Source of the DNA: an uncultured Dehalococcoidales bacterium
GTDB taxonomy: Bacteria > Chloroflexota > Dehalococcoidia > Dehalococcoidales > GCA-2688105
Direction: 5' to 3'
Assembly: GCA_964499445.1 (NCBI GenBank)
Contig: CAZCLE010000001.1
Location: 29,615 to 93,614, forward strand
Length of the DNA stretch: 64,000 nt
Shown here: one piece after another, positions 17,347-52,242 of the stretch
Position numbering within the stretch: the first letter of the stretch is position 1
Layout of the letters: every line of letters begins with the position of its first letter
Program-made: the position numbers and the translations under genes
The notes under the pieces: model-generated
What the model was told of the DNA's origin: nothing
Database searches by the model: none
The model's input: only the letters and a program-made list of their open reading frames with translations

Positions 17347-17375
17347 GCTTTAAACCAAAGGAAGTCGGGTTAACC

Positions 17376-18473
17376 ATGGAACAAATCCAGTCCTTGCAGA
17401 TGCGGCAGGAGCTAACACAAATCCTCCGGATGGAACAGGCTAACCTGCTGGAGATGCCTGAGGATGAGTTTAACAGGCTAATCACCGAGATGGAGCAGGG
17501 TCCCCTTTTCCGAAGGCTATACCAGAGAGAAAAGCTAATCTGCCATCAGAGATTTCCCAGAACTGATATTTCCTCTGGTTTTTATCAACTCAAAGAAGAG
17601 ATAGCAGCCGATACAGGCTCTGTGGATGTTGAATCTCTTCTGCTGAACAAAGAGTATATCGTCCGTCAAATACAGAAACTAGGGCTGGAGAAATTCAAAC
17701 AGTATTTCCTGTTCTCCGAACCAGCGATGACCCTGGAACAAATCGCCAGAGAGTGCGACCTGGAGGTCGCCGAGGTTCAGACGATAAACAACCTTATTGA
17801 TGAATTCTCTATTATGAGTGAGTTTTATCATCCCTCTAATGTCACCTCAGGCGACATTCACTATTCCAAGGTTGCCTCGGTGGAGAAGGATGAGAAGGGT
17901 TTTATTATCGGCTATTTTTCAGCTTCTTTCGCCCGAGGTCGGTATGCGATTAATTATGAAAGATTTGAGGAGTTAAGAACGGCAGGTGCGTTCACCGAAA
18001 CTGAAATCAAGGAAGCCAGACAGTTATTCAAGAGGCTGGAACTAATCAATAGCCGTAAGGATACACTAACTCAGATACTGCAAAATATTATTGACAAGCA
18101 GGCACTCTACCTAGAGTCTGGTGATTTGAAGTCTCTTTTATCCTTCAGTCAAAAGGAGCTAGCCGAAAAAATTGGACTGGCTCCGAGCTCAGTCAGTCGT
18201 GCTATAAGAAGCAAAAGTATAGACACCCCCTGGGGTAGAGAAGTCCCTCTAAAATACTTCTTCCCCAGGCCAAAGAGGTTCAGGAAGGAACTGCTCAGGC
18301 AGCTCCTTGAAACCGATAATGGACTTTCCTCAGACGAGGCAATACGGACCAAGCTCTGGGAGAAATTTGGCGTGGCCATCTCCCGGCGCTCGGTAGCCAA
18401 CTTGAGGAAGGAACTTAAGTTTCCTGCAGCCCACGGAAAACGGCATCCTATCCAGAGGAGGCAGACAAGATGA
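17376..18473 (+). CDS. Short, divergent RNA polymerase sigma-54 (RpoN)-like factor
   Basis: 365 aa. The Gln/Leu-rich N-terminus LQMRQELTQILRMEQANLLEMPEDEFNRLITEMEQGPLF resembles region I. ELAEKIGLAPSSVSRAIRSKSIDTPWGREVPLKYFF resembles the sigma-54 HTH plus the (E)LKYFF segment. ISRRSVANLRKEL resembles the RpoN box ARRTVAKYRE. It is shorter than typical RpoN, and the middle core-binding part was not confidently recognised. Confidence 0.6.
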   Translation: MEQIQSLQMRQELTQILRMEQANLLEMPEDEFNRLITEMEQGPLFRRLYQREKLICHQRFPRTDISSGFYQLKEEIAADTGSVDVESLLLNKEYIVRQIQKLGLEKFKQYFLFSEPAMTLEQIARECDLEVAEVQTINNLIDEFSIMSEFYHPSNVTSGDIHYSKVASVEKDEKGFIIGYFSASFARGRYAINYERFEELRTAGAFTETEIKEARQLFKRLELINSRKDTLTQILQNIIDKQALYLESGDLKSLLSFSQKELAEKIGLAPSSVSRAIRSKSIDTPWGREVPLKYFFPRPKRFRKELLRQLLETDNGLSSDEAIRTKLWEKFGVAISRRSVANLRKELKFPAAHGKRHPIQRRQTR

Positions 18474-20428
18474 GTGTTGTTTACACCGAGCGAGAAAAGT
18501 GCAAAGGATGCTATACCTGCATACGTAACTGCCCAGCTAAGGCAATCAGGGTAAGAGAGGGCTTGGCTGAAGTGATAAAGGAACGCTGTATCGCCTGCGG
18601 CATCTGCGTCCAGATCTGCATGGCAAAAGCAAAGCTAGCAGAGAGCGACACAGGAATAGTTTGGCAACTACTGGGAGGGGAGGAACCGGTAATTGCTATG
18701 CTTTCATCTCCATTTCCCGCCGCCTTTCCCGAAGTTCGCCCGAGGCGGTTGGTAACCGCCCTGAAAAAACTGGGGTTTAGTGAGGTGATGGAGGATTCCT
18801 TCGGTGCCGAGCTCGTCTGCCGTGAATATGCCCGCCTTATAAAGGAAAACAGTGATAAACCTATCCTCTCATCTACCTGTCCCGCAGTAGTGTCCTACAT
18901 TGAGAAGCACTATCCCCAGCTCATCGATAATCTGGCACCCACTGCTTCCCCCATGATAGCTATGGGTAGAGTGATTAAACGGCAGTATAATCCGCAGGCT
19001 AAGGTGGTCTTCATTGGTCCTTGCGTGGCTAAGAAAGCTGAGGCTAAGGATGAGAATGTTGCCGGGGTGGTGGACGCCGTCCTGACCTTTGCTGAGATGA
19101 AGGAGATGTTCGCCGCTAAAGGTATCAATCCCGAAACTGAGGAAGAAGGTCAATTCTCGGGGCCTAAGCCCAACCTGGGTCGCCTGTTCGCCATAACCGG
19201 GGGACTGCTCAAGATAGCCGGACTTTCCGATGACATCATAGCCAATGAAATTATCAATGCCTGTGGCCGGGACTATACGCTGAATATCGTTCGGGAGTTT
19301 GCCGAAGGCAATATCACTGCCAGGTTCATCAGCCTATGTTTCTGTGAAGGCTGTATTGACGGGCCGGTCATTGATAATGACCTAAGCATTTTTAAACGAA
19401 GGGAAATAATCAGCAATTATACTCTAAGCCAGTCAGACCCGACTCAGACCGAGAGGGACATAAAGGAGTATGCTAGCATTGACCTCAACCGCAAATTTAC
19501 CCACCGAGGTGTCGGCCTGCCGACGCCCAATGAGGAAGATGTTCAACGGGTTTTAAAGAAAATTGGCAGGGTGGACCCCCACTACCGAATGAATTGTGGT
19601 GCTTGTGGCTATAGCGGTTGCCGAGAGCTGGCAGTCGCTGTCTGTCAGGGTCTAGCTGAGACTGAAATGTGCTGGCCGTACGTGCTTGAGAAGTTGAGGA
19701 CTACTCAAGAAGAGTTAATCCAAGCTGAGAAACTGACCTCTCTGGGTCAGATGGCAGCCTCTATTGCTCATGAGGTTAATAATCCTCTGGCTGGCGTCCT
19801 CGTCTATACCCAATTGTTGGCTAAAAAGATAGCTGGTGACAAATTCTCCAAAGAGGTTGCTCTTGACTACCTATCGAAAATGGAACCGGAACTCACTCGC
19901 AGCACCAGGTTAATCCGAGGCCTTCTGGATTTCGCCCGACAGTCGCCCCCAACCCTCAGGGAGGTGAACCTCAACGAGGTCATTAACCGAGCCCTTGACC
20001 TCGCGGCTCATTCAGCTAAGCTACAGCATATCCAGATAATAAAAGAGCTCAACCCCTCCTTGCCTGAGCCCATGGCTGACTTTGACCAGCTTCAACAGGT
20101 CTGTGCCAACCTTATTATGAATGCTATCCAGGCAATGTCTGAAGGCGGCATGCTAACCCTCCGCACCTCAGTCGCTAACGATAGTCAGCTCAAGATAGAG
20201 GTTCAGGATACCGGTTGTGGCATTTCTCAGGAAAATATGCGCAAGCTGTTCACCCCCTTCTTCACCACTAAGGGAAAGGGAAAGGGGGTAGGTCTGGGTC
20301 TGGCGGTGGCCTATGGAATTATCCAGCGCCATCACGGCAAGATAGAAGTGCAAAGTAAGGAGGGAGAGGGTACTACCTTCACCATCCGCCTACCCCGGCA
20401 CCACGGGAAAAGGCCAGAAGATAAATAG
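18470..20428 (+). CDS. Sensor histidine kinase with an N-terminal 2x[4Fe-4S] ferredoxin, a [FeFe]-hydrogenase large-subunit-like (H-domain-like) domain and a putative Fe-S (CxxC...C...C) domain
   Basis: 652 aa. CKGCYTCIRNCP and CIACGICVQIC form the ferredoxin part. Hydrogenase-like motifs are SSTCPAVV (vs TSCCP), GPCVAKKAE (vs MPCxxKxxE) and LCFCEGCIDGP (vs MxCxxGCxxG). MNCGACGYSGCRELAVAVCQG...C follows. The transmitter has H-box SIAHEVNNPL, NLIMNAIQA, DTGCGI and GVGLGLA. Confidence 0.8.
   Translation: MSVVYTEREKCKGCYTCIRNCPAKAIRVREGLAEVIKERCIACGICVQICMAKAKLAESDTGIVWQLLGGEEPVIAMLSSPFPAAFPEVRPRRLVTALKKLGFSEVMEDSFGAELVCREYARLIKENSDKPILSSTCPAVVSYIEKHYPQLIDNLAPTASPMIAMGRVIKRQYNPQAKVVFIGPCVAKKAEAKDENVAGVVDAVLTFAEMKEMFAAKGINPETEEEGQFSGPKPNLGRLFAITGGLLKIAGLSDDIIANEIINACGRDYTLNIVREFAEGNITARFISLCFCEGCIDGPVIDNDLSIFKRREIISNYTLSQSDPTQTERDIKEYASIDLNRKFTHRGVGLPTPNEEDVQRVLKKIGRVDPHYRMNCGACGYSGCRELAVAVCQGLAETEMCWPYVLEKLRTTQEELIQAEKLTSLGQMAASIAHEVNNPLAGVLVYTQLLAKKIAGDKFSKEVALDYLSKMEPELTRSTRLIRGLLDFARQSPPTLREVNLNEVINRALDLAAHSAKLQHIQIIKELNPSLPEPMADFDQLQQVCANLIMNAIQAMSEGGMLTLRTSVANDSQLKIEVQDTGCGISQENMRKLFTPFFTTKGKGKGVGLGLAVAYGIIQRHHGKIEVQSKEGEGTTFTIRLPRHHGKRPEDK
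19724..20332 (+). repeat. Copy 1 of a 609-bp duplicated transmitter module (DHp + CA)
   Basis: It reads base-for-base the same as 20997-21605 (offset 1273) where I compared the lines. The encoded 200+ aa are identical in the ORF track. One mismatch sits just upstream (19723 A vs 20996 G), and similarity decays after 20332/21605. Confidence 0.85.
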
Positions 20429-20444
20429 TTGAGTAAGGTTCTTA

Positions 20445-21701
20445 ATGGAAGAGACTATAACAACCAAACCTACCCTAAAAAGCACCCTGCAGCGCTGGGA
20501 AGAAAGCATAGTAACCAGAGTTGCGGAATGGTTGCCACAGAGCGACACCAGGGGTGTGCGAAGCCCTCACTTGTGGATAATCACGGCTCTAATGGCACTT
20601 GGCACGGTCATTTACTATATAGACCAGACCCCCCTGGTTAGCGTGCCACCATTTAATTACAGCTTTTTTACTAGTGTCCATGACCTGCATCGAACATTAT
20701 TTTTCATTCCTATAATCTACGCGGCGCTGGTATTCAGGGTTCGGGGAAGCCTAATCGCTTCCTTCGTTTTTCTCGGCGTGGTGTTGCCACGTGCCCTGCT
20801 ATTCTCCCCCTATCCCGACCCACTACTCAGGCCACTTCTCCTTGTCGCCTTGGCCACTTTTGTCACTCTGTTAATAGCGACACAGCTTAATCGAATTGAA
20901 AGGGAAAGAAAGGCTCGCGCTGAACTGAGCACAGCCTACCAGGAGCTTAGCGAATATGACCAGCGGCTGAGAGAAAGCCAGGAGCAACTAATCCAGGCTG
21001 AGAAACTGACCTCTCTGGGTCAGATGGCAGCCTCTATTGCTCATGAGGTTAATAATCCTCTGGCTGGCGTCCTCGTCTATACCCAATTGTTGGCTAAAAA
21101 GATAGCTGGTGACAAATTCTCCAAAGAGGTTGCTCTTGACTACCTATCGAAAATGGAACCGGAACTCACTCGCAGCACCAGGTTAATCCGAGGCCTTCTG
21201 GATTTCGCCCGACAGTCGCCCCCAACCCTCAGGGAGGTGAACCTCAACGAGGTCATTAACCGAGCCCTTGACCTCGCGGCTCATTCAGCTAAGCTACAGC
21301 ATATCCAGATAATAAAAGAGCTCAACCCCTCCTTGCCTGAGCCCATGGCTGACTTTGACCAGCTTCAACAGGTCTGTGCCAACCTTATTATGAATGCTAT
21401 CCAGGCAATGTCTGAAGGCGGCATGCTAACCCTCCGCACCTCAGTCGCTAACGATAGTCAGCTCAAGATAGAGGTTCAGGATACCGGTTGTGGCATTTCT
21501 CAGGAAAATATGCGCAAGCTGTTCACCCCCTTCTTCACCACTAAGGGAAAGGGAAAGGGGGTAGGTCTGGGTCTGGCGGTGGCCTATGGAATTATCCAGC
21601 GCCATAAAGGTAGAATAGGAGTGCAAAGTAAGGAGGGGGAGGGTACTACCTTTACCATCTATCTACCATTGCACCATGAAGAACATGAAGAAAAAGGCTA
21701 A
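20445..21701 (+). CDS. Membrane-bound sensor histidine kinase (about 4 TM segments), whose transmitter is identical to that of the preceding kinase
   Basis: 418 aa. Hydrophobic segments are HLWIITALMALGTVIYYI, LFFIPIIYAALVF, LIASFVFLGVVL and LLLVALATFVTLLIA. A coiled coil follows, then the same LIQAEKLTSLGQMAASIAHEVNNPL...GLAVAYGIIQRH block as ORF 18470-20428. Confidence 0.85.
   Translation: MEETITTKPTLKSTLQRWEESIVTRVAEWLPQSDTRGVRSPHLWIITALMALGTVIYYIDQTPLVSVPPFNYSFFTSVHDLHRTLFFIPIIYAALVFRVRGSLIASFVFLGVVLPRALLFSPYPDPLLRPLLLVALATFVTLLIATQLNRIERERKARAELSTAYQELSEYDQRLRESQEQLIQAEKLTSLGQMAASIAHEVNNPLAGVLVYTQLLAKKIAGDKFSKEVALDYLSKMEPELTRSTRLIRGLLDFARQSPPTLREVNLNEVINRALDLAAHSAKLQHIQIIKELNPSLPEPMADFDQLQQVCANLIMNAIQAMSEGGMLTLRTSVANDSQLKIEVQDTGCGISQENMRKLFTPFFTTKGKGKGVGLGLAVAYGIIQRHKGRIGVQSKEGEGTTFTIYLPLHHEEHEEKG
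20997..21605 (+). repeat. Copy 2 of the 609-bp duplicated transmitter module
   Basis: See 19724-20332. Confidence 0.85.
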
Positions 21702-23046
21702 AATCCTAGTGGTTGATGATGAAGTCATTATCCGCGAGTCGCTCCGTGACTGGCTCAGCGATGTCGGGCACCTAGTGCTTACCGCAGAGAACGGTCCCCA
21801 GGCTCTGGAGATTATCCAAAAGGAGAAACCAGCCGTCGCTATTGTTGATTTGGTAATGCCCGGGATGGACGGGATTGAACTACTAAAGAGAGCCAGGGAA
21901 ATATCGCCCAGCATTGAGGTGGTCATCATCACTGCCTATGGCAGTATCCCCACGGCTATTACTGCCATGAGGGAAGGCGCCTATGACTACATCGAGAAGC
22001 CCTTCTGCCCGGAAAAGGTAGAGCTGTTGATTGAGAAACTGGTGGAACATCAACGGCTAATCGAGGAGAACATTTCCCTGCACCAGAAATTAGAGGAGCG
22101 CTACCAATTCCAGAATATCATTGCCAAGAGCCCCAAGATGCAGCAGGTAATCGAGGTAATTAAGGTCGTCGCCAAGAGTAATGCTACGGTGTTGATTGTT
22201 GGTGAGAGTGGTACCGGTAAGGAACTTGTCGCCCGAGCCATCCACTCCCAGAGCTACCGTAAGGATAAGCCGTTTATCGCCGTCAGTTGCGCTGCTTTGC
22301 CGGAGACTCTCCTTGAGAGTGAGCTATTCGGACATGAGAAGGGCTCCTTTACCGGGGCTCATGCTCAACGGAGGGGGAAATTTGAAATCGCTAACAAAGG
22401 CTCCCTCTTCCTGGATGAGATTGGTGAGATGAGTGCCAATATCCAGGTTCACCTGCTCCGAGTCTTGGAGGAGAAGGAATTCACCAGAGTTGGCGGCAAT
22501 GAGCTAGTTAAGGTCGATGTAAGGGTCATCTCAGCGACCAATAAGGACATAAAAAGAGCCATAGCCAATGAGCAGTTTCGGGAGGACCTTTACTACCGAC
22601 TCAACGTGGTTACTATTGAATTGCCACCGTTGAGAGAGAGGAAGGAGGATATTCTCCTCTTAGCCCAGCACTTCCTAAAAAAGTTTGCTGTGGAAAATCA
22701 AAAGGAGATTACCAGCTTCTCTGCCGAGGCTACTGATTTTCTTTTGAAATATGAGTGGCCGGGTAATGTCCGAGAACTGGAAAATGCTGTTGAAAGGGCG
22801 GTCATCTTAGCCAAAAATTCTTATATTGAGATTACTGACCTGCCCCAGGAAAGCTTAACATTGGCTCACTCATCTCCATCAGGGAAAAGCCTGGAAGAAA
22901 TCGAGAAAAACCATATCCTGAATATACTCAACGAAACCGGTGGAAACTATAGTAAAGCGGCTAGAATCATGGGGATTTCCAGAATGACGCTTTACAACAA
23001 GGTTAGGGCATATGGATTAGATGTAAATAAAATAGACAGTAACTGA
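21676..23046 (+). CDS. NtrC-family sigma-54-dependent response regulator (REC + AAA+ + Fis-type HTH)
   Basis: 456 aa. ILVVDDE...VAIVDLVMPGMDG is the receiver. Walker A is GESGTGKE, and ESELFGHEKGSFTGA is the GAFTGA-type sigma-54 contact loop. LFLDEIGEM and the C-terminal GNYSKAARIMGISRMTLYNK HTH are also present. It overlaps the upstream kinase by 26 nt. Confidence 0.9.
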   Translation: MKNMKKKAKILVVDDEVIIRESLRDWLSDVGHLVLTAENGPQALEIIQKEKPAVAIVDLVMPGMDGIELLKRAREISPSIEVVIITAYGSIPTAITAMREGAYDYIEKPFCPEKVELLIEKLVEHQRLIEENISLHQKLEERYQFQNIIAKSPKMQQVIEVIKVVAKSNATVLIVGESGTGKELVARAIHSQSYRKDKPFIAVSCAALPETLLESELFGHEKGSFTGAHAQRRGKFEIANKGSLFLDEIGEMSANIQVHLLRVLEEKEFTRVGGNELVKVDVRVISATNKDIKRAIANEQFREDLYYRLNVVTIELPPLRERKEDILLLAQHFLKKFAVENQKEITSFSAEATDFLLKYEWPGNVRELENAVERAVILAKNSYIEITDLPQESLTLAHSSPSGKSLEEIEKNHILNILNETGGNYSKAARIMGISRMTLYNKVRAYGLDVNKIDSN

Positions 23047-23089
23047 CTAACTCTTTTACAATTAAAACTTCCGCTTAAAGCAAACATTT

Positions 23090-23125
23090 AGGCTATCCTG
23101 ACCATTCAAGATAGCCTTTTCTTTT
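23090..23125 (+). terminator. Hairpin plus T-run after the NtrC-type gene (alternatively a palindromic protein-binding site)
   Basis: AGGCTATC (23090-23097), a 12-nt loop, GATAGCCT (23110-23117), then TTTTCTTTT. Confidence 0.4.
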
Positions 23126-23140
23126 GGCAAGAAAATTGCA
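23125..23140 (+). promoter_or_regulatory. Sigma-54 (-24/-12) promoter candidate
   Basis: TGGCAAGAAAATTGCA, with GG at 23126-23127 and GC at 23138-23139. This is the canonical 12-nt register of TGGCAC-N5-TTGCA. The predicted TSS near 23150 leaves a leader of about 65 nt with AGGAGGAGG before ATG 23217. Confidence 0.5.
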
Positions 23141-23216
23141 TCTAAATAGGGTGGAGGTGATAGAAATGGAAAAGCAGGCAGTCCTAAAGGAAGAGAAAAT
23201 AGGAGGAGGTGGAAAG

Positions 23217-24245
23217 ATGAAACCGATATTGATAGTAGAGGATGAAGTCATTATGAGAGAGTCTCTCCGAGATTGGCTGACTGACAGCGGTTATCACGTG
23301 GAGACTGCTGAGGAAGGAGAGGAAGCGTTAAAAACTATTGCCGAGCGGGACTTTGGTGTTGTCATCCTTGACCTGAGGTTGCCGGGAAAGGACGGGATTG
23401 AGGTACTAAGAGAGGCCAAGGAGAAAAGACCGCAGCTTAAGGGAATCATTATCACCGCTTATCCTTCGGTGCCGACAGCGGTAGAGGCGATGAAGGAGGG
23501 GGCTATTGATTATCTACCCAAACCCTTCGACCTTGATGACCTGGAAAAATTAATCCAGGGCACTCTGGGACCGGTTCAGGTAGAGATAAGACCAAAGGCT
23601 GTTACTGAAGAAGCTGTGGCTGAACCACCTGTAGTAGAGGAGGCTAAGGTTGAGGAGGTCATAGCCGTAGCTCCGGAGGAAATCCCGGTTCACCTCAAGC
23701 AAGGCAAGGCTCACTTTGAGGCTTGTAACTACCGGGAGGCTCTTAAGGAGTTTGAGGCTGTCATCGCCGTGGCTCCGGGCAGCATTGAGACCCGTGTCTG
23801 GATACGAAAGACCCATGAAGCACTAACCAAGCCCAAGGTTGAGGGGGTAGTTGAAGGGGAAGCGGCTCCTGTCGCTGAGGAAGCCAAGCCAAAGGAGTGC
23901 CTGTGGATGAAGCTGGGGATGGTTTCTTACCGCATCTGCACCAATGACTACAACTGTCTCACCTGCGAGTTTGACCAGACGATGCAGGAGAAGATGGCTA
24001 GTGGTGAAGCTCCAGAGCTTGATGCCGCACTGGAAAGATTTAAGGCACTACCTGGAAATCAGAGGCTCTGCCGCTATGCCCTTAAGGGCGATGTCTCATA
24101 CCGGATTTGCACCCGCCTCTTCCAGTGTGACACCTGCGAGTTTGGTCAAATGATGGAGGATGCCCTCCAGCAGAAACTGGCTAAGCTGGCGACACGACGG
24201 GAGGCCCTGCTCAAAAAGGAGCAAAAAGCTGAAGCCAAAGCGTAA
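23217..24245 (+). CDS. Response regulator: a receiver, a helical (TPR-like) linker, and two copies of a C-X12-C-X5-C-X2-C motif
   Basis: The ORF track starts at 23124. I prefer ATG 23217 (MKPILIVEDE, AGGAGGAGG upstream), which parallels ORF 15109. The receiver is about 90% identical to that of ORF 15109. C-terminal motifs are CLWMKLGMVSYRICTNDYNCLTCEF and CRYALKGDVSYRICTRLFQCDTCEF. Confidence 0.8.
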   Translation: MKPILIVEDEVIMRESLRDWLTDSGYHVETAEEGEEALKTIAERDFGVVILDLRLPGKDGIEVLREAKEKRPQLKGIIITAYPSVPTAVEAMKEGAIDYLPKPFDLDDLEKLIQGTLGPVQVEIRPKAVTEEAVAEPPVVEEAKVEEVIAVAPEEIPVHLKQGKAHFEACNYREALKEFEAVIAVAPGSIETRVWIRKTHEALTKPKVEGVVEGEAAPVAEEAKPKECLWMKLGMVSYRICTNDYNCLTCEFDQTMQEKMASGEAPELDAALERFKALPGNQRLCRYALKGDVSYRICTRLFQCDTCEFGQMMEDALQQKLAKLATRREALLKKEQKAEAKA

Positions 24246-25763: not shown

Positions 25764-26078
25764 ATGAACCTAGGACAAAGAATTAGAGAAAGAAGGCAAA
25801 TCTTGAAAATTACCCAGCAAGAGCTGGCGGAAGCTCTTGGGGTGACGCCACAACACATTTCAGCTATGGAGCAAGGTAAACGAGCTCCCTCTTTGCCTTC
25901 TCTTGTCAAATTGGCTGAAGAACTGGGAGCAACTGTGGACTACCTTGTGACAGGTAAAGAAGGGGTTATCACAGATACAATACCGGCAATTAAGGCTGAT
26001 AAAAGCCTGAACCTTGATGTAAAGAGAGCGCTGATAGCCCTGGTAAAGGCGCTCTGTAAAGCTACCGTAAATGACTGA
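25764..26078 (+). CDS. XRE-family HTH transcriptional regulator
   Basis: 104 aa. LGQRIRERRQILKITQQELAEALGVTPQHISAMEQGKRAPSLPSLVKLAEELG. Confidence 0.7.
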   Translation: MNLGQRIRERRQILKITQQELAEALGVTPQHISAMEQGKRAPSLPSLVKLAEELGATVDYLVTGKEGVITDTIPAIKADKSLNLDVKRALIALVKALCKATVND

Positions 26079-26100
26079 ATCTGTCCCATCCCCATTTCGT

Positions 26101-26262
26101 TTAGTAATCATCGCCGAGCAGGTGAATATTGCCCAGCCTTACATTTTTTAGTCCGTGTGCCCTCGCCTCAGCCAGACACTCCCGGGCATGCCGCTCGGAG
26201 GTAAGCGGTAAATCGTTCATCATAAACTGGGGGGAGAAGGCAAGGAGGGCATAAGGAATGTC
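26101..26262 (-). pseudogene. C-terminal remnant of a radical-SAM activase-type gene (PflA / AmmeMemoRadiSam-like)
   Basis: IPYALLAFSPQFMMNDLPLTSERHARECLAEARAHGLKNVRLGNIHLL resembles the C-terminal pattern h.F.P.ykm.d.p.T....a..iA...GL.yVY.GN. There is no radical-SAM core upstream, because the hydrolase gene occupies that space. Confidence 0.4.
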
Positions 26263-26266
26263 AGGG

Positions 26267-27136
26267 CTAAGAGAGAAAATCAAGAGCAATCCGGTTAAAC
26301 CTTTCTGGTTCTTCGTCATGCGGCTCATGTGCCGATTTCTCGAAGACCTCTGTTCTCGAGCCCTTTAAGATGTGGTGTATTTCTTGTCCAAGTCTGACTG
26401 GAATACCTTTGTCATGATATCCCCAGACAATCAAGGTGGGAACTCCCATTTCTCCCAGATGGTGAATTTCATCGCGCAGTGTATGAAAGAACTTCAAGCG
26501 TATGATTCTGAGAAATGCCTCATTACTTCCTTTGATTTTTTGTGACCAGGTAAGACCGTCAAAATACTCTTGCGTGATCTCTTTTCGGTAAAGATAAACC
26601 TTCTTAACGATTAACTTGCGAATCAGATTGGTTGGAAGACTGAGCACCAATTCACCCAACCCGGGTAAAGCCACTATCTGCTGGGTTGGCACCGGTCTAT
26701 GAGGCATTCCAGCAGCACAGACCAGAATAATCGATTTTACTCTATCTCTATACTCTGCGGTGAATTTGATAATGGTACCACCACCCATTGACTGCCCGAT
26801 AAGGGAAGCCCTTTCTATATTCAAAGCATTCATAAAGGAGAGCAATTGTTGGGCGTAGAGCGGATAACCATAATTCAATAGCTCACGAGTGCTATAACCA
26901 CAACCCCATAAGTCAAGAGCATAGATTTTGAACTTGGCAGCTAAGGTATCTATGTTGTTATGCCATGAGTAGCTATCGGAACCAAAGCCGTGCAACAGGA
27001 TCACTGGCTCACCTTCTCCCTTTTCTATATAGTGGGTTTGATGTCCAGTAAGGTTGATGAACTTACCTGGAGCATATTTCTTCGCCCACTCATCCAAAGA
27101 TTGACTATTCCACGGTATAAATTCGCCCATTCTCAA
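26267..27136 (-). CDS. Alpha/beta-fold hydrolase
   Basis: 289 aa. HG oxyanion motif ILLHGFG, nucleophile elbow GQSMGG, and a C-terminal His region (AHEPH). Confidence 0.8.
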   Translation of the reverse strand: MRMGEFIPWNSQSLDEWAKKYAPGKFINLTGHQTHYIEKGEGEPVILLHGFGSDSYSWHNNIDTLAAKFKIYALDLWGCGYSTRELLNYGYPLYAQQLLSFMNALNIERASLIGQSMGGGTIIKFTAEYRDRVKSIILVCAAGMPHRPVPTQQIVALPGLGELVLSLPTNLIRKLIVKKVYLYRKEITQEYFDGLTWSQKIKGSNEAFLRIIRLKFFHTLRDEIHHLGEMGVPTLIVWGYHDKGIPVRLGQEIHHILKGSRTEVFEKSAHEPHDEEPERFNRIALDFLS

Positions 27137-27185
27137 CCCCCTTTCCTAATATTACTGTCAACAACTCTAATATAACCCAAGCTAA

Positions 27186-27215
27186 TTGCAAATTAATAGC
27201 CCTATTAGGTATACT
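27186..27215 (+). promoter_or_regulatory. Sigma-70-like promoter candidate for the AcnX-UxaA-LarA operon
   Basis: TTGCAA (27186-27191), an 18-nt spacer, then TATACT (27210-27215). Confidence 0.4.
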
Positions 27216-27316
27216 GACCATCAAAGTAACACCGGGTATAATGCACCCGAAACACTTTTCTCTGATACTGCTAGCGGGAAAGACAACCAAAGTGAAACTC
27301 TGAGGAGGTAAGTAAT

Positions 27317-28594
27317 ATGCATCTTGATGATGAGGAAAAAAGGATGCTCGCCGGTGAAGAGGGAAAAGGGACACAGAGGGCGATGGAGATTCTCAAGGCC
27401 AAGGGAGAGGCTGAAGATGCCAAGAGAATGGTCAAAATTGTTTATGCTCACCTTATGCCTCCCGACACCATGTTCTTCCCCTACGGCCGACAGGGCAAGT
27501 GGGCTCGCGACCTCACCGGGGAGCTTACCGAGGGCATCACCCGCCTTAAGGTACCAGCCACCATGGAGCCCAAGTTTGTTGACCTGGCTATAGCCAAAGA
27601 CATCGAATTCACCGATGAACTCATCGAGGAAATGCGCGGTATCATGCTCCCCGCCGCCGAGTTTTTTGAAAACCTCGGGGTCGTCCCCAGCTATACGGCA
27701 CTGCCCTTCTTAATTTACCCCACCAAGATGGGGGAGCATGTCAGCATCGCTGAATCTATAGCTATCCTGTGGTACAACACCATGTTCGGTTCCAGATGCG
27801 AGCGCGATGACGGTGTTACTTCCCTGGCAGCAGCCATCACCGGCGTTTACCCCGAGATTGGTGCTCACCTCACCGAAAACAGGTTCGCCGAGGTAATTAT
27901 TAGACCCGGTAAAGATATTGACCCGGCCAAGTTCTCTTACACCGACTGGGATGCCTACAGTCTAGCCGCGGCTCGTAAAGGCAAGGAGAAGACGCCTGTC
28001 TTCGTGGGGCTACCGCCTAACCTGACCTTTACCCAGCTAAAACACCTGCTGGCAGTCATCGCCGTGGAATCAGGTCTGGCGATAATGCACATTGTCGGCA
28101 TAACCCCGGAAGCACCTACCCTAGAGGCTGCCCTGAATGGCAGGAAGCCACTGGCCGAATTTGAAATCGGCAAGCGTGAACTTGATGAAGCCTACGCCAT
28201 CGCCACCACCGCCACTGACCCGAATGTTGACTACGTGTTCCTGGGATGCCCCCATGTTACCCTGCCCGAGTTAAAAGAAGTTGCCCAAGCCCTGGATGGC
28301 AAAAAGGTCAACCCCAATGTTAAGCTGGTGGTATCCACCACCTGGCAATACCTTCAGACCGCCGAAGAAATGGGCTACGCCGATGTTATCAGGAAGGCAG
28401 GGGCTGCCTTAACCAAGGATATGTGCATCGCCTTTTCCGGTACCCAGGTTAGCGGCACTATTGCTACTGACTCCATTAAAGCCGCCTTCTTCTACACCGG
28501 CTTTTCCTCCAAAACCACCAGGCGAGTCTGGTTCGGCACTATCCAGGATTGCATCCAGGCAGCCATTACCGGCAAATGGCAAGGAAGGAGATAG
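27317..28594 (+). CDS. Aconitase X catalytic (large) subunit, DUF521 family
   Basis: 425 aa. The N-terminal L.DEEKRMLAGEEG.G.Q.AMEIL signature is typical of AcnX/DUF521. Confidence 0.8.
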   Translation: MHLDDEEKRMLAGEEGKGTQRAMEILKAKGEAEDAKRMVKIVYAHLMPPDTMFFPYGRQGKWARDLTGELTEGITRLKVPATMEPKFVDLAIAKDIEFTDELIEEMRGIMLPAAEFFENLGVVPSYTALPFLIYPTKMGEHVSIAESIAILWYNTMFGSRCERDDGVTSLAAAITGVYPEIGAHLTENRFAEVIIRPGKDIDPAKFSYTDWDAYSLAAARKGKEKTPVFVGLPPNLTFTQLKHLLAVIAVESGLAIMHIVGITPEAPTLEAALNGRKPLAEFEIGKRELDEAYAIATTATDPNVDYVFLGCPHVTLPELKEVAQALDGKKVNPNVKLVVSTTWQYLQTAEEMGYADVIRKAGAALTKDMCIAFSGTQVSGTIATDSIKAAFFYTGFSSKTTRRVWFGTIQDCIQAAITGKWQGRR

Positions 28595-28598
28595 GTAA

Positions 28599-29021
28599 AT
28601 GAGTGTTAATAAAATTAAAGGACGCAGTATAAAAAAACTGCCCACCGTAGAAGGCGAAGCACTGGTAACCACCGACCTGGTGGCTTTCTGGGGCGGTACC
28701 GATTGGGAAACCGGGGAGATAGTTGAGATAGGTCATCAAGCCAGGGGTAAAAATATGGCAGGGAAGATTCTGGTCTGTCCTGCCGGCAAAGGCGGCGCCG
28801 GGGATACCTTCGGTTACTATTATCTCTACAAGAGTGGCAAGGCGCCCAAGGCTATTGTCTGCAATAGAGGTCAGGGGACTACTCTAGCCGGGGCACTGCT
28901 TACCGATACCCCTATGATTTACGGGTTTAATGAGAATGTGGTAGAGCTGGTGAATAACGGGGATATGTTGAAGGTAGATTCGGAAAAGGGAGAGGTTACC
29001 ATAACCAAAAAGGGTGCCTAG
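28599..29021 (+). CDS. Aconitase X swivel (small) subunit, DUF126 family
   Basis: 140 aa. GEALVTTDLVAFWGGTDWETGEI...GKILVCPAGKGGAGDT matches the DUF126 pattern. Confidence 0.75.
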   Translation: MSVNKIKGRSIKKLPTVEGEALVTTDLVAFWGGTDWETGEIVEIGHQARGKNMAGKILVCPAGKGGAGDTFGYYYLYKSGKAPKAIVCNRGQGTTLAGALLTDTPMIYGFNENVVELVNNGDMLKVDSEKGEVTITKKGA

Positions 29022-29059
29022 TCCTCGCCCAGCAGTCGGATTTACTGGAGGTAATTATA

Positions 29060-29362
29060 TTGAAACAGAAAGCAGTCATTCTTAATTCCAAAGATAATGT
29101 GGCTACCGCCCTCGCCGACCTGAAGGCTGGGGATACTTTAGAACTGAATACTGGAGAGAAAACCATAGCCATAAAGCTGACCGCCCCGGTGCCATTCGGC
29201 CACAAGTTCAGTCTGGCTAACATAGAGGCTGGCTCTGCGGTAATTAAATACGGTGAGGCTATCGGTATAGCCACCGCCACCATCCAGCCCGGAGATTATG
29301 TCCATGTCCACAATGTAGCTAGCGCCCGGGGAAGAGGCGATTTAGCCGGAGGTGTCAAATGA
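29060..29362 (+). CDS. UxaA-family dehydratase/lyase small subunit (SAF domain; SuyA/GarD-N-like)
   Basis: 100 aa with a TTG start. DNVATALADLKAGD...PFGHKFSLANIEAGSAVIKYGEAIG...I.PGDYVHVHN. Confidence 0.75.
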   Translation: MKQKAVILNSKDNVATALADLKAGDTLELNTGEKTIAIKLTAPVPFGHKFSLANIEAGSAVIKYGEAIGIATATIQPGDYVHVHNVASARGRGDLAGGVK

Positions 29363-30519
29363 GCTTTCTAGGATACCCTCGTCGGGACGGTTCGGTAGGC
29401 ACGCGAAATTACATCGGCATCATATCTACGGTGAGCTGTGCTAACGATGTCGCCTGGTGGCTCTCACAAAAGGTTAAAGGCTGCGCCCCCTTTCTCCATG
29501 GTCAGGGCTGTTGCCAGACCAAGCCCGACCTTGACATTACCACCCGAACCCTCATCTCCCTGGGCTGGAACCCCAATCTGGCCGGGGTGTTGGTGGTGAG
29601 TCTGGGCTGTGAAGCGGTATCGGCGGATGCCATAGCCGAGGGTATCGCTGAGTCGGGCAAGCCCGTGGAAAAAATAGCGATTCTAAAAATGGGAGGCGCT
29701 ACCGCCGCCTTGACTCAGGGCTCCCGTCTTGCCCGGGCTATGGTGGCTGAGGCATCAAAAATAAAGAGACAGGAATTCCCCGACTCGGAATTGATGCTGG
29801 GGGTGAAGTGCGGTGCCTCCGATACTACCTCGGGGCTGGCGGCAAACCCAGCCGCCGGGTCTGCCTGCGATTTACTAATTGATAATGGTGGCACCTGTGT
29901 CTTTGGCGAGACCACGGAATTTATCGGGGCTGAGCATATTCTTACCCGTCGCGCCGCCACCCCCCAAGTAGCCGACAAAATTATGGACATTGTGGCGCGC
30001 ATGGAAAAGCGGGTTATAGCTATGGGTTTTGATATGAGAGGCGGACAGCCCACGGCCGGCAATATTGCCGGAGGACTGACCACCATCGAGGAGAAATCCC
30101 TAGGGGCGATAGTCAAGGGAGGCACCAAACCCATCCAGGAGGTCTATGAGTATGGAGAACGCCCTCAAGGCAAAGGGCTGTTCATAATTGATACCCCGGG
30201 ACGGGAGCCCGAATTCCTCACCGGTCTGGCCGCCGCCGGGGCTCAGGTCATTGTTTTCACCACCGGGCTGGGTGCCCCGCAGGGCTTTCCCCTTATCCCG
30301 GTCATTAAGATTACCGGCAATCCGGCTACCTATAAGCAACTCCCCGACCACATGGATATATTTGTTGAGCTAGCCGATAAAGTCGGCTCGGGCATTGCCC
30401 AAGCCGGAGAGAGCCTGTACAAGGAGATTCTAGCCGTAGCTTCGGGGAAACAGACCAAGGCGGAAAAGATAAACTACGGCAACTTCCCCAATATCTTTAC
30501 CATTGGTCCGGTAATGTAG
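29359..30519 (+). CDS. UxaA-family dehydratase/lyase large subunit (altronate dehydratase / SuyB-like)
   Basis: 386 aa with an ATGA overlap with the small subunit. FLGYPRRDGSVGTRNYIGI...HGQGCCQ...GVKCGASDTTSG...TTEFIGAEH. Confidence 0.8.
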   Translation: MSFLGYPRRDGSVGTRNYIGIISTVSCANDVAWWLSQKVKGCAPFLHGQGCCQTKPDLDITTRTLISLGWNPNLAGVLVVSLGCEAVSADAIAEGIAESGKPVEKIAILKMGGATAALTQGSRLARAMVAEASKIKRQEFPDSELMLGVKCGASDTTSGLAANPAAGSACDLLIDNGGTCVFGETTEFIGAEHILTRRAATPQVADKIMDIVARMEKRVIAMGFDMRGGQPTAGNIAGGLTTIEEKSLGAIVKGGTKPIQEVYEYGERPQGKGLFIIDTPGREPEFLTGLAAAGAQVIVFTTGLGAPQGFPLIPVIKITGNPATYKQLPDHMDIFVELADKVGSGIAQAGESLYKEILAVASGKQTKAEKINYGNFPNIFTIGPVM

Positions 30520-30551
30520 TCCTGCCCGATTAAAACTGAGGAGATAAGATT

Positions 30552-31796
30552 ATGAATGTGCTTAAGCTACCGCAACTGGCCTGGCACGGGACTAAAGCCC
30601 TGGAGCTACCCCTCCCTGATAGCTGGCAGGTTGAGATGTGTCACATGGCTGGTTATGACCGCCCCGCCCTGACCCCCGACCAGATTAAAGCCGCCGTAAC
30701 CCAAAATCTCATTGGCTCACCACCCATCCGGGAACTGGCTAAAGGTAAAAAAGAGGTTGTCATCATCTTTGACGACATGACCCGGGTGACCAGGGTGGCT
30801 GACATAGTCCCCTTCGTGATAGACGAATTGGCAGAAGCCGGCATCGCCGATGATAGAATCCGCTTCATTGCCGCCCTCGGCTGTCACGGGGCAATGAACC
30901 GATTTGATTTTGTTAAAAAACTGGGCGAGGCAACTCTAGCCAGGTTCCCCGTCTATAATCACAATCCTTTTGATAACTGCGACTATGTGGGCACCACCAG
31001 CCATGGCACCAAGGTCTACTTAAACGCTGAGGTAATGAAGTGCGACTTCAAGATTGCCATTGGTTCCATCACGCCGCACATTATGAGCGGGTTTGGTGGG
31101 GGGTGGAAAATCATCCTGCCCGGTATAGCCTCCTATGAATCTATCAACGCTCTCCACATGCTCTATAAGTTGCTACCCAGGGAGCGCCAGCAGCAGATGA
31201 CCACCGAAGCCGGGGTCATCGAGGACAACCCGATATACCAGGATATTGAGGAAGGGGCATCCCTTTCCGGTCTGGACATCAAGATTGAAACCCTGTTTAA
31301 CCATTGGGGTGAGACGGTGGCAGTCTATGCCGGCACGCCTAAACAAGCCTATGCTGCCAGCGTGGAGGACGCCAAAACCCACTTCCTCACCCCCCGAGCC
31401 AGGGATAAGGACATTGTTATCGCCAATACCTTTGCCAAGGCGAACGAGGCTACCCTGGGCATACTTACCGCCTGCCCCTCGGTGAAGAGCACCGGGGGAG
31501 ACATCGTCCTTATTGCCAATGCCCCCGAGGGGCAGGTAACCCATTACCTGATGGGTCCGTTTGGCAAAATGATTGAGTCAAAGCAACCACTGCAGGTGCG
31601 CACTCCCCCATCCGTCAAGCACCTGATTGTTTTCACCGAGTACCCTGACCTGGCGGGGAGGGGCTATTTTGAACAATCGGACAAGGTAATGTTTATGCAT
31701 AGATGGGATGATGTCCGACATGCCCTTCAGGAATTTCACGGTGATAATGCCGAGGTGGCGGTATATCCCCACGCCGAGGTTCAGTACTGCAGGTAA
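30552..31796 (+). CDS. LarA-family (nickel-pincer-dependent) 2-hydroxyacid racemase/epimerase homologue, DUF2088
   Basis: 414 aa. ALGCHGAMN, ITPHIMSGFGGGWKIILPG and INALH align by eye with the LarA His/His/Lys/His region. Confidence 0.7.
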   Translation: MNVLKLPQLAWHGTKALELPLPDSWQVEMCHMAGYDRPALTPDQIKAAVTQNLIGSPPIRELAKGKKEVVIIFDDMTRVTRVADIVPFVIDELAEAGIADDRIRFIAALGCHGAMNRFDFVKKLGEATLARFPVYNHNPFDNCDYVGTTSHGTKVYLNAEVMKCDFKIAIGSITPHIMSGFGGGWKIILPGIASYESINALHMLYKLLPRERQQQMTTEAGVIEDNPIYQDIEEGASLSGLDIKIETLFNHWGETVAVYAGTPKQAYAASVEDAKTHFLTPRARDKDIVIANTFAKANEATLGILTACPSVKSTGGDIVLIANAPEGQVTHYLMGPFGKMIESKQPLQVRTPPSVKHLIVFTEYPDLAGRGYFEQSDKVMFMHRWDDVRHALQEFHGDNAEVAVYPHAEVQYCR

Positions 31797-31799
31797 TAA

Positions 31800-32600
31800 T
31801 TAATGCTCGACCTGTTTAACCTGATAGCGCAACTTGCCCGCCGGGGCTATTACCTCGACTACTTTTCCCTGACCTTGACCAATAAGGGCTCTACCTATAG
31901 GTGAAGCACTGGAAATCTTGCCCTGGGTCGGGTCTACCTCCCTGGGACTGACTATGGTATAGTGCAGTTCCTCCCCTGAAGCCAGGTCAAGCAAGGTAAC
32001 GCTATTACCAATGCCTACCTTAAGGGTAGCCTTTTGTTCCCTATCAATAATAGTCGCTGACTTTAGAGTCCCCTCCAGTTTTTCAATCCGACCTTCTATG
32101 TGTCCACGCTGCTCCCTCGCTGCCTCCAGAGGCGCATTCTCCCGAAAGTCCTTATCTGCCGCCGCCCTGCGCATTTCATCAATAGCCTCAAGACGCTTGT
32201 TCTTAAGGGTATCAAGCTCAGTCTTCAATTCAGCATAGCCCTGTTGAGTTAAAGAGACCGTCTGGGGCAAACCCCGCCGGGACGAATGCCGGCATAAGGT
32301 CTTTCCCTTCTTAGCCTTAAGCTGGGCGGCCAGATTAGCCTTACTCCACCCCTCCTTTTTAGCGTAAATCAAAAAAGCTCGAATTAACTCGAGCTTTTTC
32401 ATATAATTGGTATCCGATAATGATAACCGCTCCGCATAATTAGCGACCTCAGGGGCAGTAAGTCCCCCCAGAGGTCGCTCCCACCCATACCAGCGAACAA
32501 ATCTATATACCTCCTGCTGGCTGGCGCCTCTTTCTTCAGATGATAAGCTGGCGAGAAAACGAGTAGCGGCTTCACCCAGACCCAGGCTATCACTATTCAC
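31800..32600 (-). CDS. greA: GreA-type transcript cleavage factor with an N-terminal extension of about 105 aa (integrase SAM-like / core-binding-like)
   Basis: 266 aa. The C-terminal 155 aa (LTQQGYAELKTELDTLKN...DFRENAPLEAARE...VSPREVDP..GKISSASPIGRALIG) is classic GreA. The N-terminal part FLASL...S..T...YRFVRWYG...LT...V.NY...L resembles Phage_int_SAM. Confidence 0.8.
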   Translation of the reverse strand: MNSDSLGLGEAATRFLASLSSEERGASQQEVYRFVRWYGWERPLGGLTAPEVANYAERLSLSDTNYMKKLELIRAFLIYAKKEGWSKANLAAQLKAKKGKTLCRHSSRRGLPQTVSLTQQGYAELKTELDTLKNKRLEAIDEMRRAAADKDFRENAPLEAAREQRGHIEGRIEKLEGTLKSATIIDREQKATLKVGIGNSVTLLDLASGEELHYTIVSPREVDPTQGKISSASPIGRALIGQGQGKVVEVIAPAGKLRYQVKQVEH

Positions 32601-32735
32601 TCTCAGAATACCCCCATATAAATATGACTAGGTCTAATCTTACTATTCTAGACGTACATTGGTCAAATAACATTAGAGATTGCTTAGTAACCTATCCCCC
32701 TGACCCCCTTCCCTCAATAAAAGATTGTTTAACAA

Positions 32736-33014
32736 CCCCTCACCCTTTATCCCTCTCCCCTTATGAAGGGGAGAGGGAAGAGAAATTCTTAAAGGGGCTT
32801 TTTACCCCACAAAAATAAATTTTTGCGGGGACCCCGTATTCGCCCCTTTTAATCCCTTTGCTAAAAACTCTCAATAAGGGGGAGTGTAGGTAAGAGAGGG
32901 GCGAAGCCCCTCTCTAAAATCTCTTCCCAAATAGAGGTTTAAGGGGCGGAGCCCCTTCTATAAAAACTTCCCCTTCCCCTTGATAAGGGGAAGGGGATAA
33001 AGGGGATAGGGTTA
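32736..33014. repeat. Composite G-rich hairpin repeat element (MITE/REP-like) with inverted A-module ends and internal B hairpins
   Basis: Left end is CCCCTCACCCTTTATCCC + hairpin CCCTCTCCCCTT/AAGGGGAGAGGG. B hairpins are AGAGAGGGGC-GAA-GCCCCTCTCT (32893-32915) and AAGGGGC-GGA-GCCCCTT (32941-32957). Right end is hairpin CCCCTTCCCCTT/AAGGGGAAGGGG + ATAAAGGGGATAGGGTTA. An extra tail-only copy lies at 32689-32714. Confidence 0.7.
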
Positions 33015-52007: not shown

Positions 52008-52144
52008 AGTTAGAAAGAGTTATTTACTGCGGGGATAACCTCTACTGGATGACCCGGCTTCCTGATGAGTTTGTTGACCTGTGTTATATTAGGAAGCCTC
52101 AAATATTTTATAAAAAAGTCTCAAAATCGAGTAAAAAGACTTGA
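52004..52144 (+). pseudogene. N-terminal stump of an N4/N6 DNA methyltransferase gene, start-stop coupled (ATGA) to glyQS
   Basis: My translation is [29 protein letters not shown], then unrelated AT-rich sequence and a stop. The pattern GDNL..M..LPD..VDL.YIDPP(F/Y) is the usual N-terminus of beta-class amino-MTases. The DPPF/Y motif itself is missing. Confidence 0.5.
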
Positions 52145-52169
52145 CAAAATACACGGAAGCGTGTATCAT
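52141..52169 (+). promoter_or_regulatory. Sigma-70-like promoter candidate for the methyltransferase, with a palindrome in the spacer
   Basis: TTGACA (52141-52146), a 17-nt spacer containing ACACG-gaag-CGTGT, then TATCAT (52164-52169). Confidence 0.4.
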
Positions 52170-52242
52170 TATCTAAATGTCCATATAATTTTAAGAAGAC
52201 AAGGCTATCAGCCATTCATACAAATATTGTATAATAAGAAAT

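Follow-up and report, generated by a model that had tools for sequence, protein, structure and literature searches.

A putative hydroxy-acid catabolic operon combining AcnX, a split UxaA/GarD-type enzyme and a LarA homolog in an uncultured Dehalococcoidales bacterium

What compound would a member of a strictly anaerobic lineage break down with an aconitase-X (AcnX) enzyme, a two-subunit enzyme of the UxaA/GarD superfamily and a LarA-type nickel-pincer racemase, all encoded side by side? This question is raised by five adjacent genes in a 64,000-nucleotide (nt) stretch of DNA, hereafter the window, from an uncultured Dehalococcoidales bacterium (contig CAZCLE010000001.1, positions 29,615 to 93,614). 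On balance, the sequences and their comparison with other genomes favor an operon for the stereo-convergent anaerobic breakdown of a polyhydroxy-carboxylic acid, with sugar acids, aldarates and acids resembling tartrate or glycerate as candidates. A first-pass annotation of the window had already suggested stereo-convergent hydroxy-acid catabolism, and this idea fits the comparative evidence. The locus is a real, uncharacterized catabolic operon built from known enzyme superfamilies, and it overturns no concept.

The operon and its conserved four-gene module

All five genes lie on the + strand and are close-packed: three of the junctions are gaps of 4, 38 and 32 nt, and at the remaining one, an ATGA at 29359-29362, the stop codon of the third gene overlaps the ATG of the fourth. 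The first gene (27317-28594) encodes the AcnX large subunit, AcnX-L (425 residues; Pfam AcnX PF04412, E-value 7e-95, 318.5 bits against a cut-off of 31.5), and the second (28599-29021) the small or swivel subunit, AcnX-S (140 residues; AcnX_swivel_put PF01989, 5.6e-21, 74.6 bits against a cut-off of 27). The third (29060-29362) has a TTG start and encodes a 100-residue SAF-domain protein (Pfam SAF, 1.4e-8), the small subunit of a split UxaA/GarD-type putative dehydratase. Its 386-residue large subunit, UxaA-L, is encoded by the fourth gene (29359-30519; GD_AH_second 2e-35 and GD_AH_C 1e-86). The fifth (30552-31796) encodes a 414-residue homolog of LarA-family nickel-pincer-nucleotide (NPN) 2-hydroxyacid racemases and epimerases (Lar_N, 4e-53). 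Both the gene packing and the three enzyme families agree with the first-pass annotation, the former being reproduced by the open reading frames (ORFs) and by Joint Genome Institute gene calls on identical contigs, which give the same five genes including the 100-residue SAF gene. A terminator scan revealed no terminator-like site on the + strand within the operon. The five genes are predicted to form one transcription unit, with the same modest preference that we give to the scheme as a whole.

A search with an AcnX-L profile, in which each species was represented by one genome, gave 22 loci, whose arrangements were judged by tblastn; two of them lie on contigs too short to judge. The ORFs of the fetched loci were called with a simple script, so that small or overlapping genes may be wrong. 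AcnX-L, AcnX-S, SAF and UxaA-L are contiguous and in the same order in 15 of the 20 evaluable loci. The other arrangements are one locus with a different order, one with a distant SAF/UxaA pair 3.3 kb off, and three with the AcnX genes alone. AcnX-S follows AcnX-L in the related loci. The 15 same-order loci come from anaerobes of the Chloroflexota, Atribacterota, Bacillota, Candidatus Moduliflexota and Desulfobacterota, and the carriers of the module comprise Dehalococcoidales, Atribacterota, Clostridia, Ca. Vecturithrix and several Desulfobacterota. Thus, the conserved unit consists of four genes, AcnX-L/S and SAF/UxaA-L, and not of five. The co-occurrence of the five-gene set, proposed in the first-pass annotation as a check, therefore holds for the four-gene module and does not extend to LarA, as the LarA type found in the window is attached to the module in close relatives only.

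Two module genes in other genomes appear broken. The AcnX-L gene of Ca. Oleincola secundus (L026:3813-5078) matches in three separate pieces, and the UxaA-L gene of a Syntrophaceae metagenome-assembled genome (MAG; L011:2015-3040) in two. Both are either pseudogenes or assembly frameshifts.

The two dehydratases and the LarA homolog

Family placement was based on Pfam domains and on the equivalog cut-offs of NCBIfam models. AcnX-L and AcnX-S share their fold family with the characterized hydroxyproline and mevalonate enzymes and have the type II architecture, in which the catalytic and swivel domains reside in separate subunits. The closest solved structure to AcnX-L is 7CNR, the large subunit of a split AcnX (E-value 1.6e-36). 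With the hydroxyproline dehydratase model NF051439 (cut-off 700), AcnX-L scores 178.6 bits and AcnX-S 48.1 bits, and AcnX-S scores 95.6 bits with the NCBIfam DUF126 model (cut-off 163). In TkAcnX, the archaeal type IIb mevalonate-5-phosphate dehydratase, the large subunit is reported to bind the Fe-S cluster through Cys110, Cys283 and Cys342 (PMC8184944). In the alignment, two of these three cysteines have counterparts in the window protein, C311 for Cys283 and C370 for Cys342, whereas the position of Cys110 is occupied by Ala128, which is invariant across the subfamily; the three-cysteine pattern of type IIb is thus incomplete. This subfamily also has two conserved cysteines of its own, C161 and C412. 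Watanabe et al. (PMC8184944) described bacterial AcnX subclasses IIc-IIf that are devoid of the landmark residues of both known activities, and the window AcnX probably belongs to one of them. A role in hydroxyproline or mevalonate metabolism was rejected on the basis of model scores and gene context: unlike the characterized enzymes, the window AcnX is not accompanied by hydroxyproline or mevalonate genes.

The split enzyme contains the SAF, GD_AH_second and GD_AH_C domains of the UxaA/GarD superfamily together with four conserved cysteines. The SAF subunit corresponds to the N-terminal part (78 residues) of the galactarate dehydratase model. UxaA-L matches the Escherichia coli GarD structure (6U7L) with an E-value of 7e-53 and scores 229 bits with the galactarate dehydratase GarD model TIGR03248 (cut-off 730.85); GarD is a fused single chain, and the window protein is split into 100 and 386 residues. 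Across 28 sequences, UxaA-L of the window plus 27 relatives, residues C27, C51, C84 and C151 do not vary, and in the alignment with the GarD cysteines three of them match exactly and one is two columns off.

In the first-pass annotation, the 100 + 386 residue split had been read as the subunit pattern of SuyAB, the (R)-sulfolactate sulfo-lyase, which is the only characterized heteromeric member of the superfamily listed in PMC6336799. The two enzymes do share a small SAF-type subunit and a large UxaA/GarD-superfamily subunit of about 390 residues, encoded in the window by genes with overlapping stop and start codons. However, the four cysteines are conserved in UxaA/GarD dehydratases and not in sulfolactate sulfo-lyase (PMC6336799). 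We found a SuyB ortholog on Paracoccus versutus pTAV3, in a locus composed of a GntR gene (suyR), the small subunit, the large subunit and a sulfate-exporter-family gene. This ortholog is 36% identical to UxaA-L, and in it Ile, Arg/Leu and Pro replace three of the four cysteines. No sulfite or sulfate exporter adjoins the module in any locus examined, and the window does not have the suyR-type arrangement. Split homologs of UxaA-L that retain the cysteines (45-55% identity) occur in sugar-acid loci. One of them adjoins a 2-keto-3-deoxygluconate permease, and a haloarchaeal one is found with mandelate-racemase-family and fumarylacetoacetate hydrolase-family genes. Another lies amid an amidohydrolase, two SDRs, a fumarylacetoacetate hydrolase-family protein and a mutarotase, an arrangement that resembles the non-phosphorylative fucose route. 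Considering the retained cysteines, the differences from the SuyB ortholog and the sugar-acid loci of its homologs, the split SAF/UxaA-L enzyme is best read as a dehydratase. Its identification as SuyAB was rejected on the cysteine pattern and the locus comparison.

Residues D75, R78, H112, H176, K186 and H202 of the LarA homolog are invariant in 34 homologs and align with D72, R75, H108, H174, K184 and H200 of Lactiplantibacillus LarA (5HUQ/6C1W). The six positions correspond to the catalytic His pair, the Lys that tethers NPN, the His that binds Ni, and the Asp/Arg of the DxTR motif. The catalytic His and Lys, whose loss together with that of larBCE was named in the first-pass annotation as refuting its reading, are thus conserved. 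An AlphaFold model (predicted local distance difference test score 81) displays the full two-domain LarA fold along its whole length when compared with LarA holoenzymes using Foldseek (TM-score 0.72-0.81 to 5HUQ, 8EZF and 6C1W; E-values about 1e-22 to 1e-25). From these residues and the predicted fold, the protein looks active. Among the NCBIfam LarA subgroups compared (lactate, malate, LarAH10, hexonate and group 22), the best models are malate racemase LarAH6 (193.6 bits, cut-off 500) and LarAH10 (183 bits, cut-off 540), followed by lactate racemase LarA (172 bits, cut-off 460) and a score of 166.5 bits against a cut-off of 462. The window LarA has no match to the NCBIfam group 22 model, and its alignment with a group 22 protein has an E-value of 0.19. 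Its closest characterized relatives are malate racemases (Mar2, E-value 2.9e-38). With these malate racemases (Mar1/Mar2, LarAH62) and the group 22 NPN isomerases it shares the catalytic and NPN-binding residues and the full fold. It differs from them by its scores below every curated cut-off, by I177/M178 in place of the Phe-Phe pair after the second catalytic His (equivalents F175/F176), and by a C-terminal region of 90 residues, including the W358/T359 equivalents, that does not align in sequence to any solved LarA. Because all three enzymes of the operon score under every curated equivalog cut-off, the AcnX, UxaA-type and LarA proteins are placed in uncharacterized subfamilies.

Genomic context and proposed pathway

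In other genomes, the module is accompanied by transporters (TRAP DctPQM, SSF symporters, CUT2 ribose-type ABC, MFS), GntR/FCD regulators, a xylulokinase-like FGGY kinase, a tartronate-semialdehyde-reductase-like dehydrogenase and an aldehyde dehydrogenase. The first-pass annotation had reported neither transporter nor regulator. Among the approximately 50 window ORFs scanned, none adjoining the operon encodes a transporter; the window does contain regulators (two-component systems, sigma-54 components and XRE-type helix-turn-helix proteins), none of which is tied to the operon by conservation. The absence of transporters and GntR regulators thus holds beside the window operon, yet not for the module in other genomes, where the transport, GntR/FCD and sugar-acid enzyme context would point to a sugar-acid or carboxylate substrate.

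Some loci with UxaA-L homologs carry another dehydratase where AcnX would be expected. In Sporomusa termitida pSPTER, the gene order is an enolase-type galactonate-dehydratase-like gene, TctCBA, a group 22 isomerase, SAF, UxaA-L (55% identity) and GntR, so that an acid-sugar dehydratase of the enolase superfamily occupies the place of AcnX. Similarly, an enolase-type dehydratase abuts a UxaA-L of 82% identity in L030. These loci are evidence that the role of the second dehydratase is interchangeable. Both AcnX and enolase-superfamily proteins are known as cis-3-hydroxy-L-proline dehydratases (NCBIfam NF051439 and NF043002), and the two folds can therefore replace each other. Table S1 of Desguin et al. 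(2020) lists an IlvD/Edd dehydratase, a TRAP transporter, an FGGY kinase, an SDR and a uronate isomerase in the context of group 22, and a 100% association of LarAH group 5 (Mar1) with COG2721 "altronate dehydratase" together with Tct transporters; AcnX COGs appear nowhere in it. The pairing of LarA with UxaA-family genes alone is thus already visible in that table for LarAH group 5, and is seen in the present analysis for group 22. The pattern that recurs couples a UxaA-type dehydratase to a second dehydratase, which is interchangeable, and adds a nickel-pincer C2 epimerase and a carboxylate transporter.

This organization has a counterpart in E. coli, where GudD (enolase-type) and GarD (UxaA/GarD-type) act on stereoisomeric sugar acids to give a common keto-deoxy product, 5-dehydro-4-deoxy-D-glucarate. 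Both systems combine two unrelated dehydratases, one of them from the UxaA/GarD superfamily. In the window, however, AcnX stands in for the enolase-superfamily enzyme as second dehydratase, the UxaA-type enzyme consists of two subunits, a LarA epimerase joins the set, the cluster contains no aldolase, reductase or kinase, and the host belongs to a strictly anaerobic lineage.

Only in close relatives, with a LarA identity of at least 82% (L005, L113 and L027), is the module followed by the window-type LarA. A different LarA-family gene is located directly downstream of UxaA-L in L007, L011, L013 and L017. Three of these four scored 504-527 bits with NF052515, "nickel pincer cofactor-dependent isomerase, group 22" (cut-off 400), and the L011 protein was assigned to group 22 by sequence clustering. 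A third LarA type lies immediately upstream of AcnX-L in L024. The window-type LarA, for its part, pairs with a second SAF/UxaA-L clade (44% identity) in L002, L062, L064, L092, L101 and L102, and a seventh locus, L036, has a window-type LarA and an other-clade SAF/UxaA-L about 1.6 kb apart. The presence of three LarA clades beside one AcnX-based module, together with LarA-UxaA pairing in other combinations, speaks for a functional connection of LarA chemistry with these dehydratases.

Other genes were observed beside the LarA homologs. The most frequent neighbor of the window-type clade is a TM1506/DUF1893 protein, found in 20 loci and often directly after LarA (e.g. L058:1685-2101). An energy-coupling factor (ECF) transporter S component lies between LarA and TM1506 in L114 (9273-10283), and the TM1506/ECF pair is about 1.4 kb upstream of LarA in L003. 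This neighbor might concern nickel or cofactor supply. A conserved cluster is also found beside the window-type LarA in Chloroflexota-type contigs (L001-L003, L062, L064, L092, L101 and L105), and directly upstream of an AcnX-UxaA-group 22 module in a Desulfobacterales MAG (L017). It comprises mycofactocin-like genes (an MftA peptide match, two radical-SAM/SPASM proteins and a GT2 glycosyltransferase), electron transfer flavoprotein (ETF) alpha/beta, FixC/FixX, a 650-residue flavoprotein of the Old Yellow Enzyme (OYE) type and often a zinc alcohol dehydrogenase, and it may be tied to the pathway. A separate 2-hydroxyacid system seems to be encoded in five further loci (L065, L067, L076, L085 and L097): two LarA paralogs in tandem, which share about 50% and 62% identity with the window LarA, are found close to genes for an OYE-type flavoprotein and an aldehyde:ferredoxin oxidoreductase. 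Clustering of the neighbors of 80 LarA loci returned many unrelated contexts instead of a single function.

In the proposed pathway, SAF and UxaA-L would form an iron-dependent dehydratase that abstracts the alpha-proton and eliminates the beta-hydroxyl, converting a 2,3-dihydroxy acid to a 2-keto-3-deoxy acid; the product would be oxaloacetate from tartrate and pyruvate from glycerate. AcnX, as an Fe-S hydro-lyase, would catalyze a second beta-elimination, either on another stereoisomer or on the same carbon skeleton, at its opposite end or at the stage of the next intermediate. LarA would invert C2 of a 2-hydroxy acid by transient hydride transfer to the nickel-pincer cofactor and thereby bring into the pathway stereoisomers that both dehydratases refuse. 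Close UxaA-L homologs are often solitary or accompanied solely by a TRAP system and a GntR regulator, which suggests that the UxaA-L product may be a central metabolite; the conversions of tartrate to oxaloacetate and of glycerate to pyruvate thus stay candidates beside longer sugar acids. More tentatively, we propose that the window AcnX subclass dehydrates sugar acids or hydroxy-dicarboxylates, which would add a third AcnX function to the two known, and that it is paired with a split UxaA/GarD dehydratase that retains its cysteines and is repeatedly joined by several LarA clades. This would define a conserved two-dehydratase pathway of strict anaerobes (Dehalococcoidales, Atribacterota, Desulfobacterota and Clostridia), in which epimerases widen the range of usable stereoisomers.

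Several observations weigh against this scheme. The known AcnX activities are not on sugar acids. The window-type LarA is tied to AcnX in one narrow lineage only, and AcnX is present in 0 of the 80 metagenome loci that hold a LarA of the window subfamily with 59-68% identity. The contexts of these LarA genes are GlcD-like/CCG dehydrogenases, acyl-CoA dehydrogenases, CoA transferases, ribosomal genes and TM1506 with ECF components. Given the narrow lineage and the differing contexts of relatives, the adjacency of LarA to the module could be recent and incidental. Close UxaA-L homologs (77-82% identity) are often solitary, with neither AcnX nor LarA, and the dehydratases are thus not obligate partners. 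As the first-pass annotation had stated, larB, larC and larE were not found among the approximately 50 scanned ORFs of the window, and the window cluster also contains no aldolase, kinase or decarboxylase that would act downstream.

The strongest challenge concerns the fifth gene only: LarA might be a bystander, a general 2-hydroxyacid racemase that acts independently next to the module in one Dehalococcoidales lineage. The widely varying LarA contexts, the absence of AcnX from the 80 loci and the lack of LarA in L006, the next-closest Dehalococcoidales module, favor this explanation. We nevertheless find it doubtful in view of its position 32 nt after a gene on the same strand, with no + strand terminator-like site in between, of the distinct LarA clades that recur beside the same module or its AcnX genes, and of the seven loci in which a window-type LarA occurs with an other-clade SAF/UxaA-L. 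A narrower version of the polyhydroxy-acid scheme, which we consider unlikely, is C4-dicarboxylate fermentation, with the UxaA-like enzyme as a tartrate dehydratase yielding oxaloacetate, AcnX as a malate/tartrate hydro-lyase that is fumarase-like or specific for other stereoisomers, and LarA as a malate racemase or tartrate epimerase. The position of malate racemases as closest relatives and top NCBIfam model of the window LarA is in line with it, as are the promiscuous epimerization of tartrate by characterized malate racemases (PMC11770544), the COG2721 and Tct association of Mar1, the TRAP DctP-type and Tct transporters and GntR/FCD regulators alongside the module, the oxaloacetate decarboxylase beta subunit near the module in L014, and the SAF/UxaA-L genes that stand alone with a transporter and a regulator (L120). 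However, the window LarA lies far under the malate racemase cut-offs, with Ile-Met after the second catalytic His and an unaligned C-terminal specificity region, and the FGGY kinase, the CUT2 ABC transporter and the published group 22 contexts suggest acids derived from neutral sugars instead.

The two dehydratases might also act in sequence, in a Weimberg- or aldarate-like route where the UxaA-like enzyme forms a 2-keto-3-deoxy acid, AcnX a dioxo acid or semialdehyde, and an aldehyde dehydrogenase encoded elsewhere oxidizes the latter. The strict linkage of the four genes suggests consecutive steps, and an aldehyde dehydrogenase directly upstream of the module in L013 matches 2,5-dioxovalerate/alpha-ketoglutarate-semialdehyde dehydrogenase models. 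Yet this enzyme scores best with the methylmalonate-semialdehyde dehydrogenase model and occurs in that locus only, the enolase-type aldonate dehydratases that take the place of AcnX in pSPTER and L030 fit parallel first steps better, and in both known AcnX reactions the hydroxyl lost is beta to a carboxylate and not to a keto group (PMC8184944); a sequential route is therefore improbable. Sulfonate catabolism, with a SuyAB-type sulfo-lyase and a LarA that racemizes sulfolactate, appears very improbable. Pyruvate as its product would account for the lack of downstream genes, and the two-subunit structure and the automated label "sulfolactate sulfo-lyase subunit beta" on some homologs agree with it; the four retained cysteines, the low identity to the SuyB ortholog, the lack of exporter genes and the split UxaA enzymes of sugar-acid loci all speak against it.

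A literature search of the searchable library on AcnX with UxaA-family enzymes or LarA, and on DUF521/DUF126, found no paper that links them or describes this gene set, in agreement with the first-pass annotation, which could not match the operon to a described pathway. Only two AcnX activities are known, and none is assigned to the bacterial subclasses IIc-IIf; a conserved partner and a plausible substrate class open one of them to direct testing. The module also provides a physiological context for uncharacterized LarA-family enzymes, including NCBIfam group 22, whose native substrates are a recognized gap. Automated "sulfolactate sulfo-lyase" labels on split UxaA proteins of subsurface metagenomes are unreliable, which affects inferences on the sulfur cycle. 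Finally, the carriers are abundant, mostly uncultured sediment anaerobes, and the pathway may thus add to the turnover of oxidized sugars and organic acids in anoxic sediments.

Upstream region, flanking genes and other features of the window

The first-pass annotation had placed the start of the operon at 27186. This position is non-coding and coincides with a promoter-like TTGCAA hexamer; the first gene starts at the ATG at 27317, preceded by a ribosome-binding site (GAGGAGG, 27302-27308). A consensus scan of the + strand gave two promoter-like matches, TTGCAA-18-TATACT (27186-27215) and CTGACC-17-TATAAT (27214-27242), both within the 180-nt intergenic gap between the operon and a divergent alpha/beta hydrolase gene. 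Promoter-like and terminator-like matches are no more numerous than in shuffled sequences, and the region 27186..27242 is only suggestive of an operon promoter. An Rfam scan of 26000-33000 for a riboswitch or leader RNA upstream of the operon returned nothing relevant.

The flanks are unrelated to the operon and contain the divergent alpha/beta hydrolase, a convergent GreA gene, thiamine and pyridoxal biosynthesis genes, and sigma-54 and two-component genes. The hydrolase (26267-27136) was rejected as a component of the system, as no homolog of it was found in L005-L026. The stop codon of GreA lies 3 nt beyond that of LarA. This GreA homolog (31800-32600, - strand, 266 residues) has its GreA domains at residues 114-265, preceded by about 110 N-terminal residues with no Pfam match, and the long form is syntenic in L005 and L113.

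A row of regulatory genes occupies 15109-24245 (+ strand). It encodes a receiver domain fused to a pyridine-nucleotide-disulfide oxidoreductase with Fe-S domains (745 residues), a 365-residue protein with a sigma-54 DNA-binding domain alone, an [FeFe]-hydrogenase large-subunit-like domain fused to a histidine kinase (652 residues), a second kinase, a sigma-54 activator and another receiver protein. This row is possibly a redox- or H2-sensing signaling system. Two patches of low GC content, at 3438-5600 (GC 0.42 at 4-6 kb), with a Z1-domain protein, and at 52001-54802 (GC 0.36 at 52-54 kb), with a DNA methylase-domain protein and a 420-residue ORF that has no Pfam match, look like acquired restriction or defense islands.

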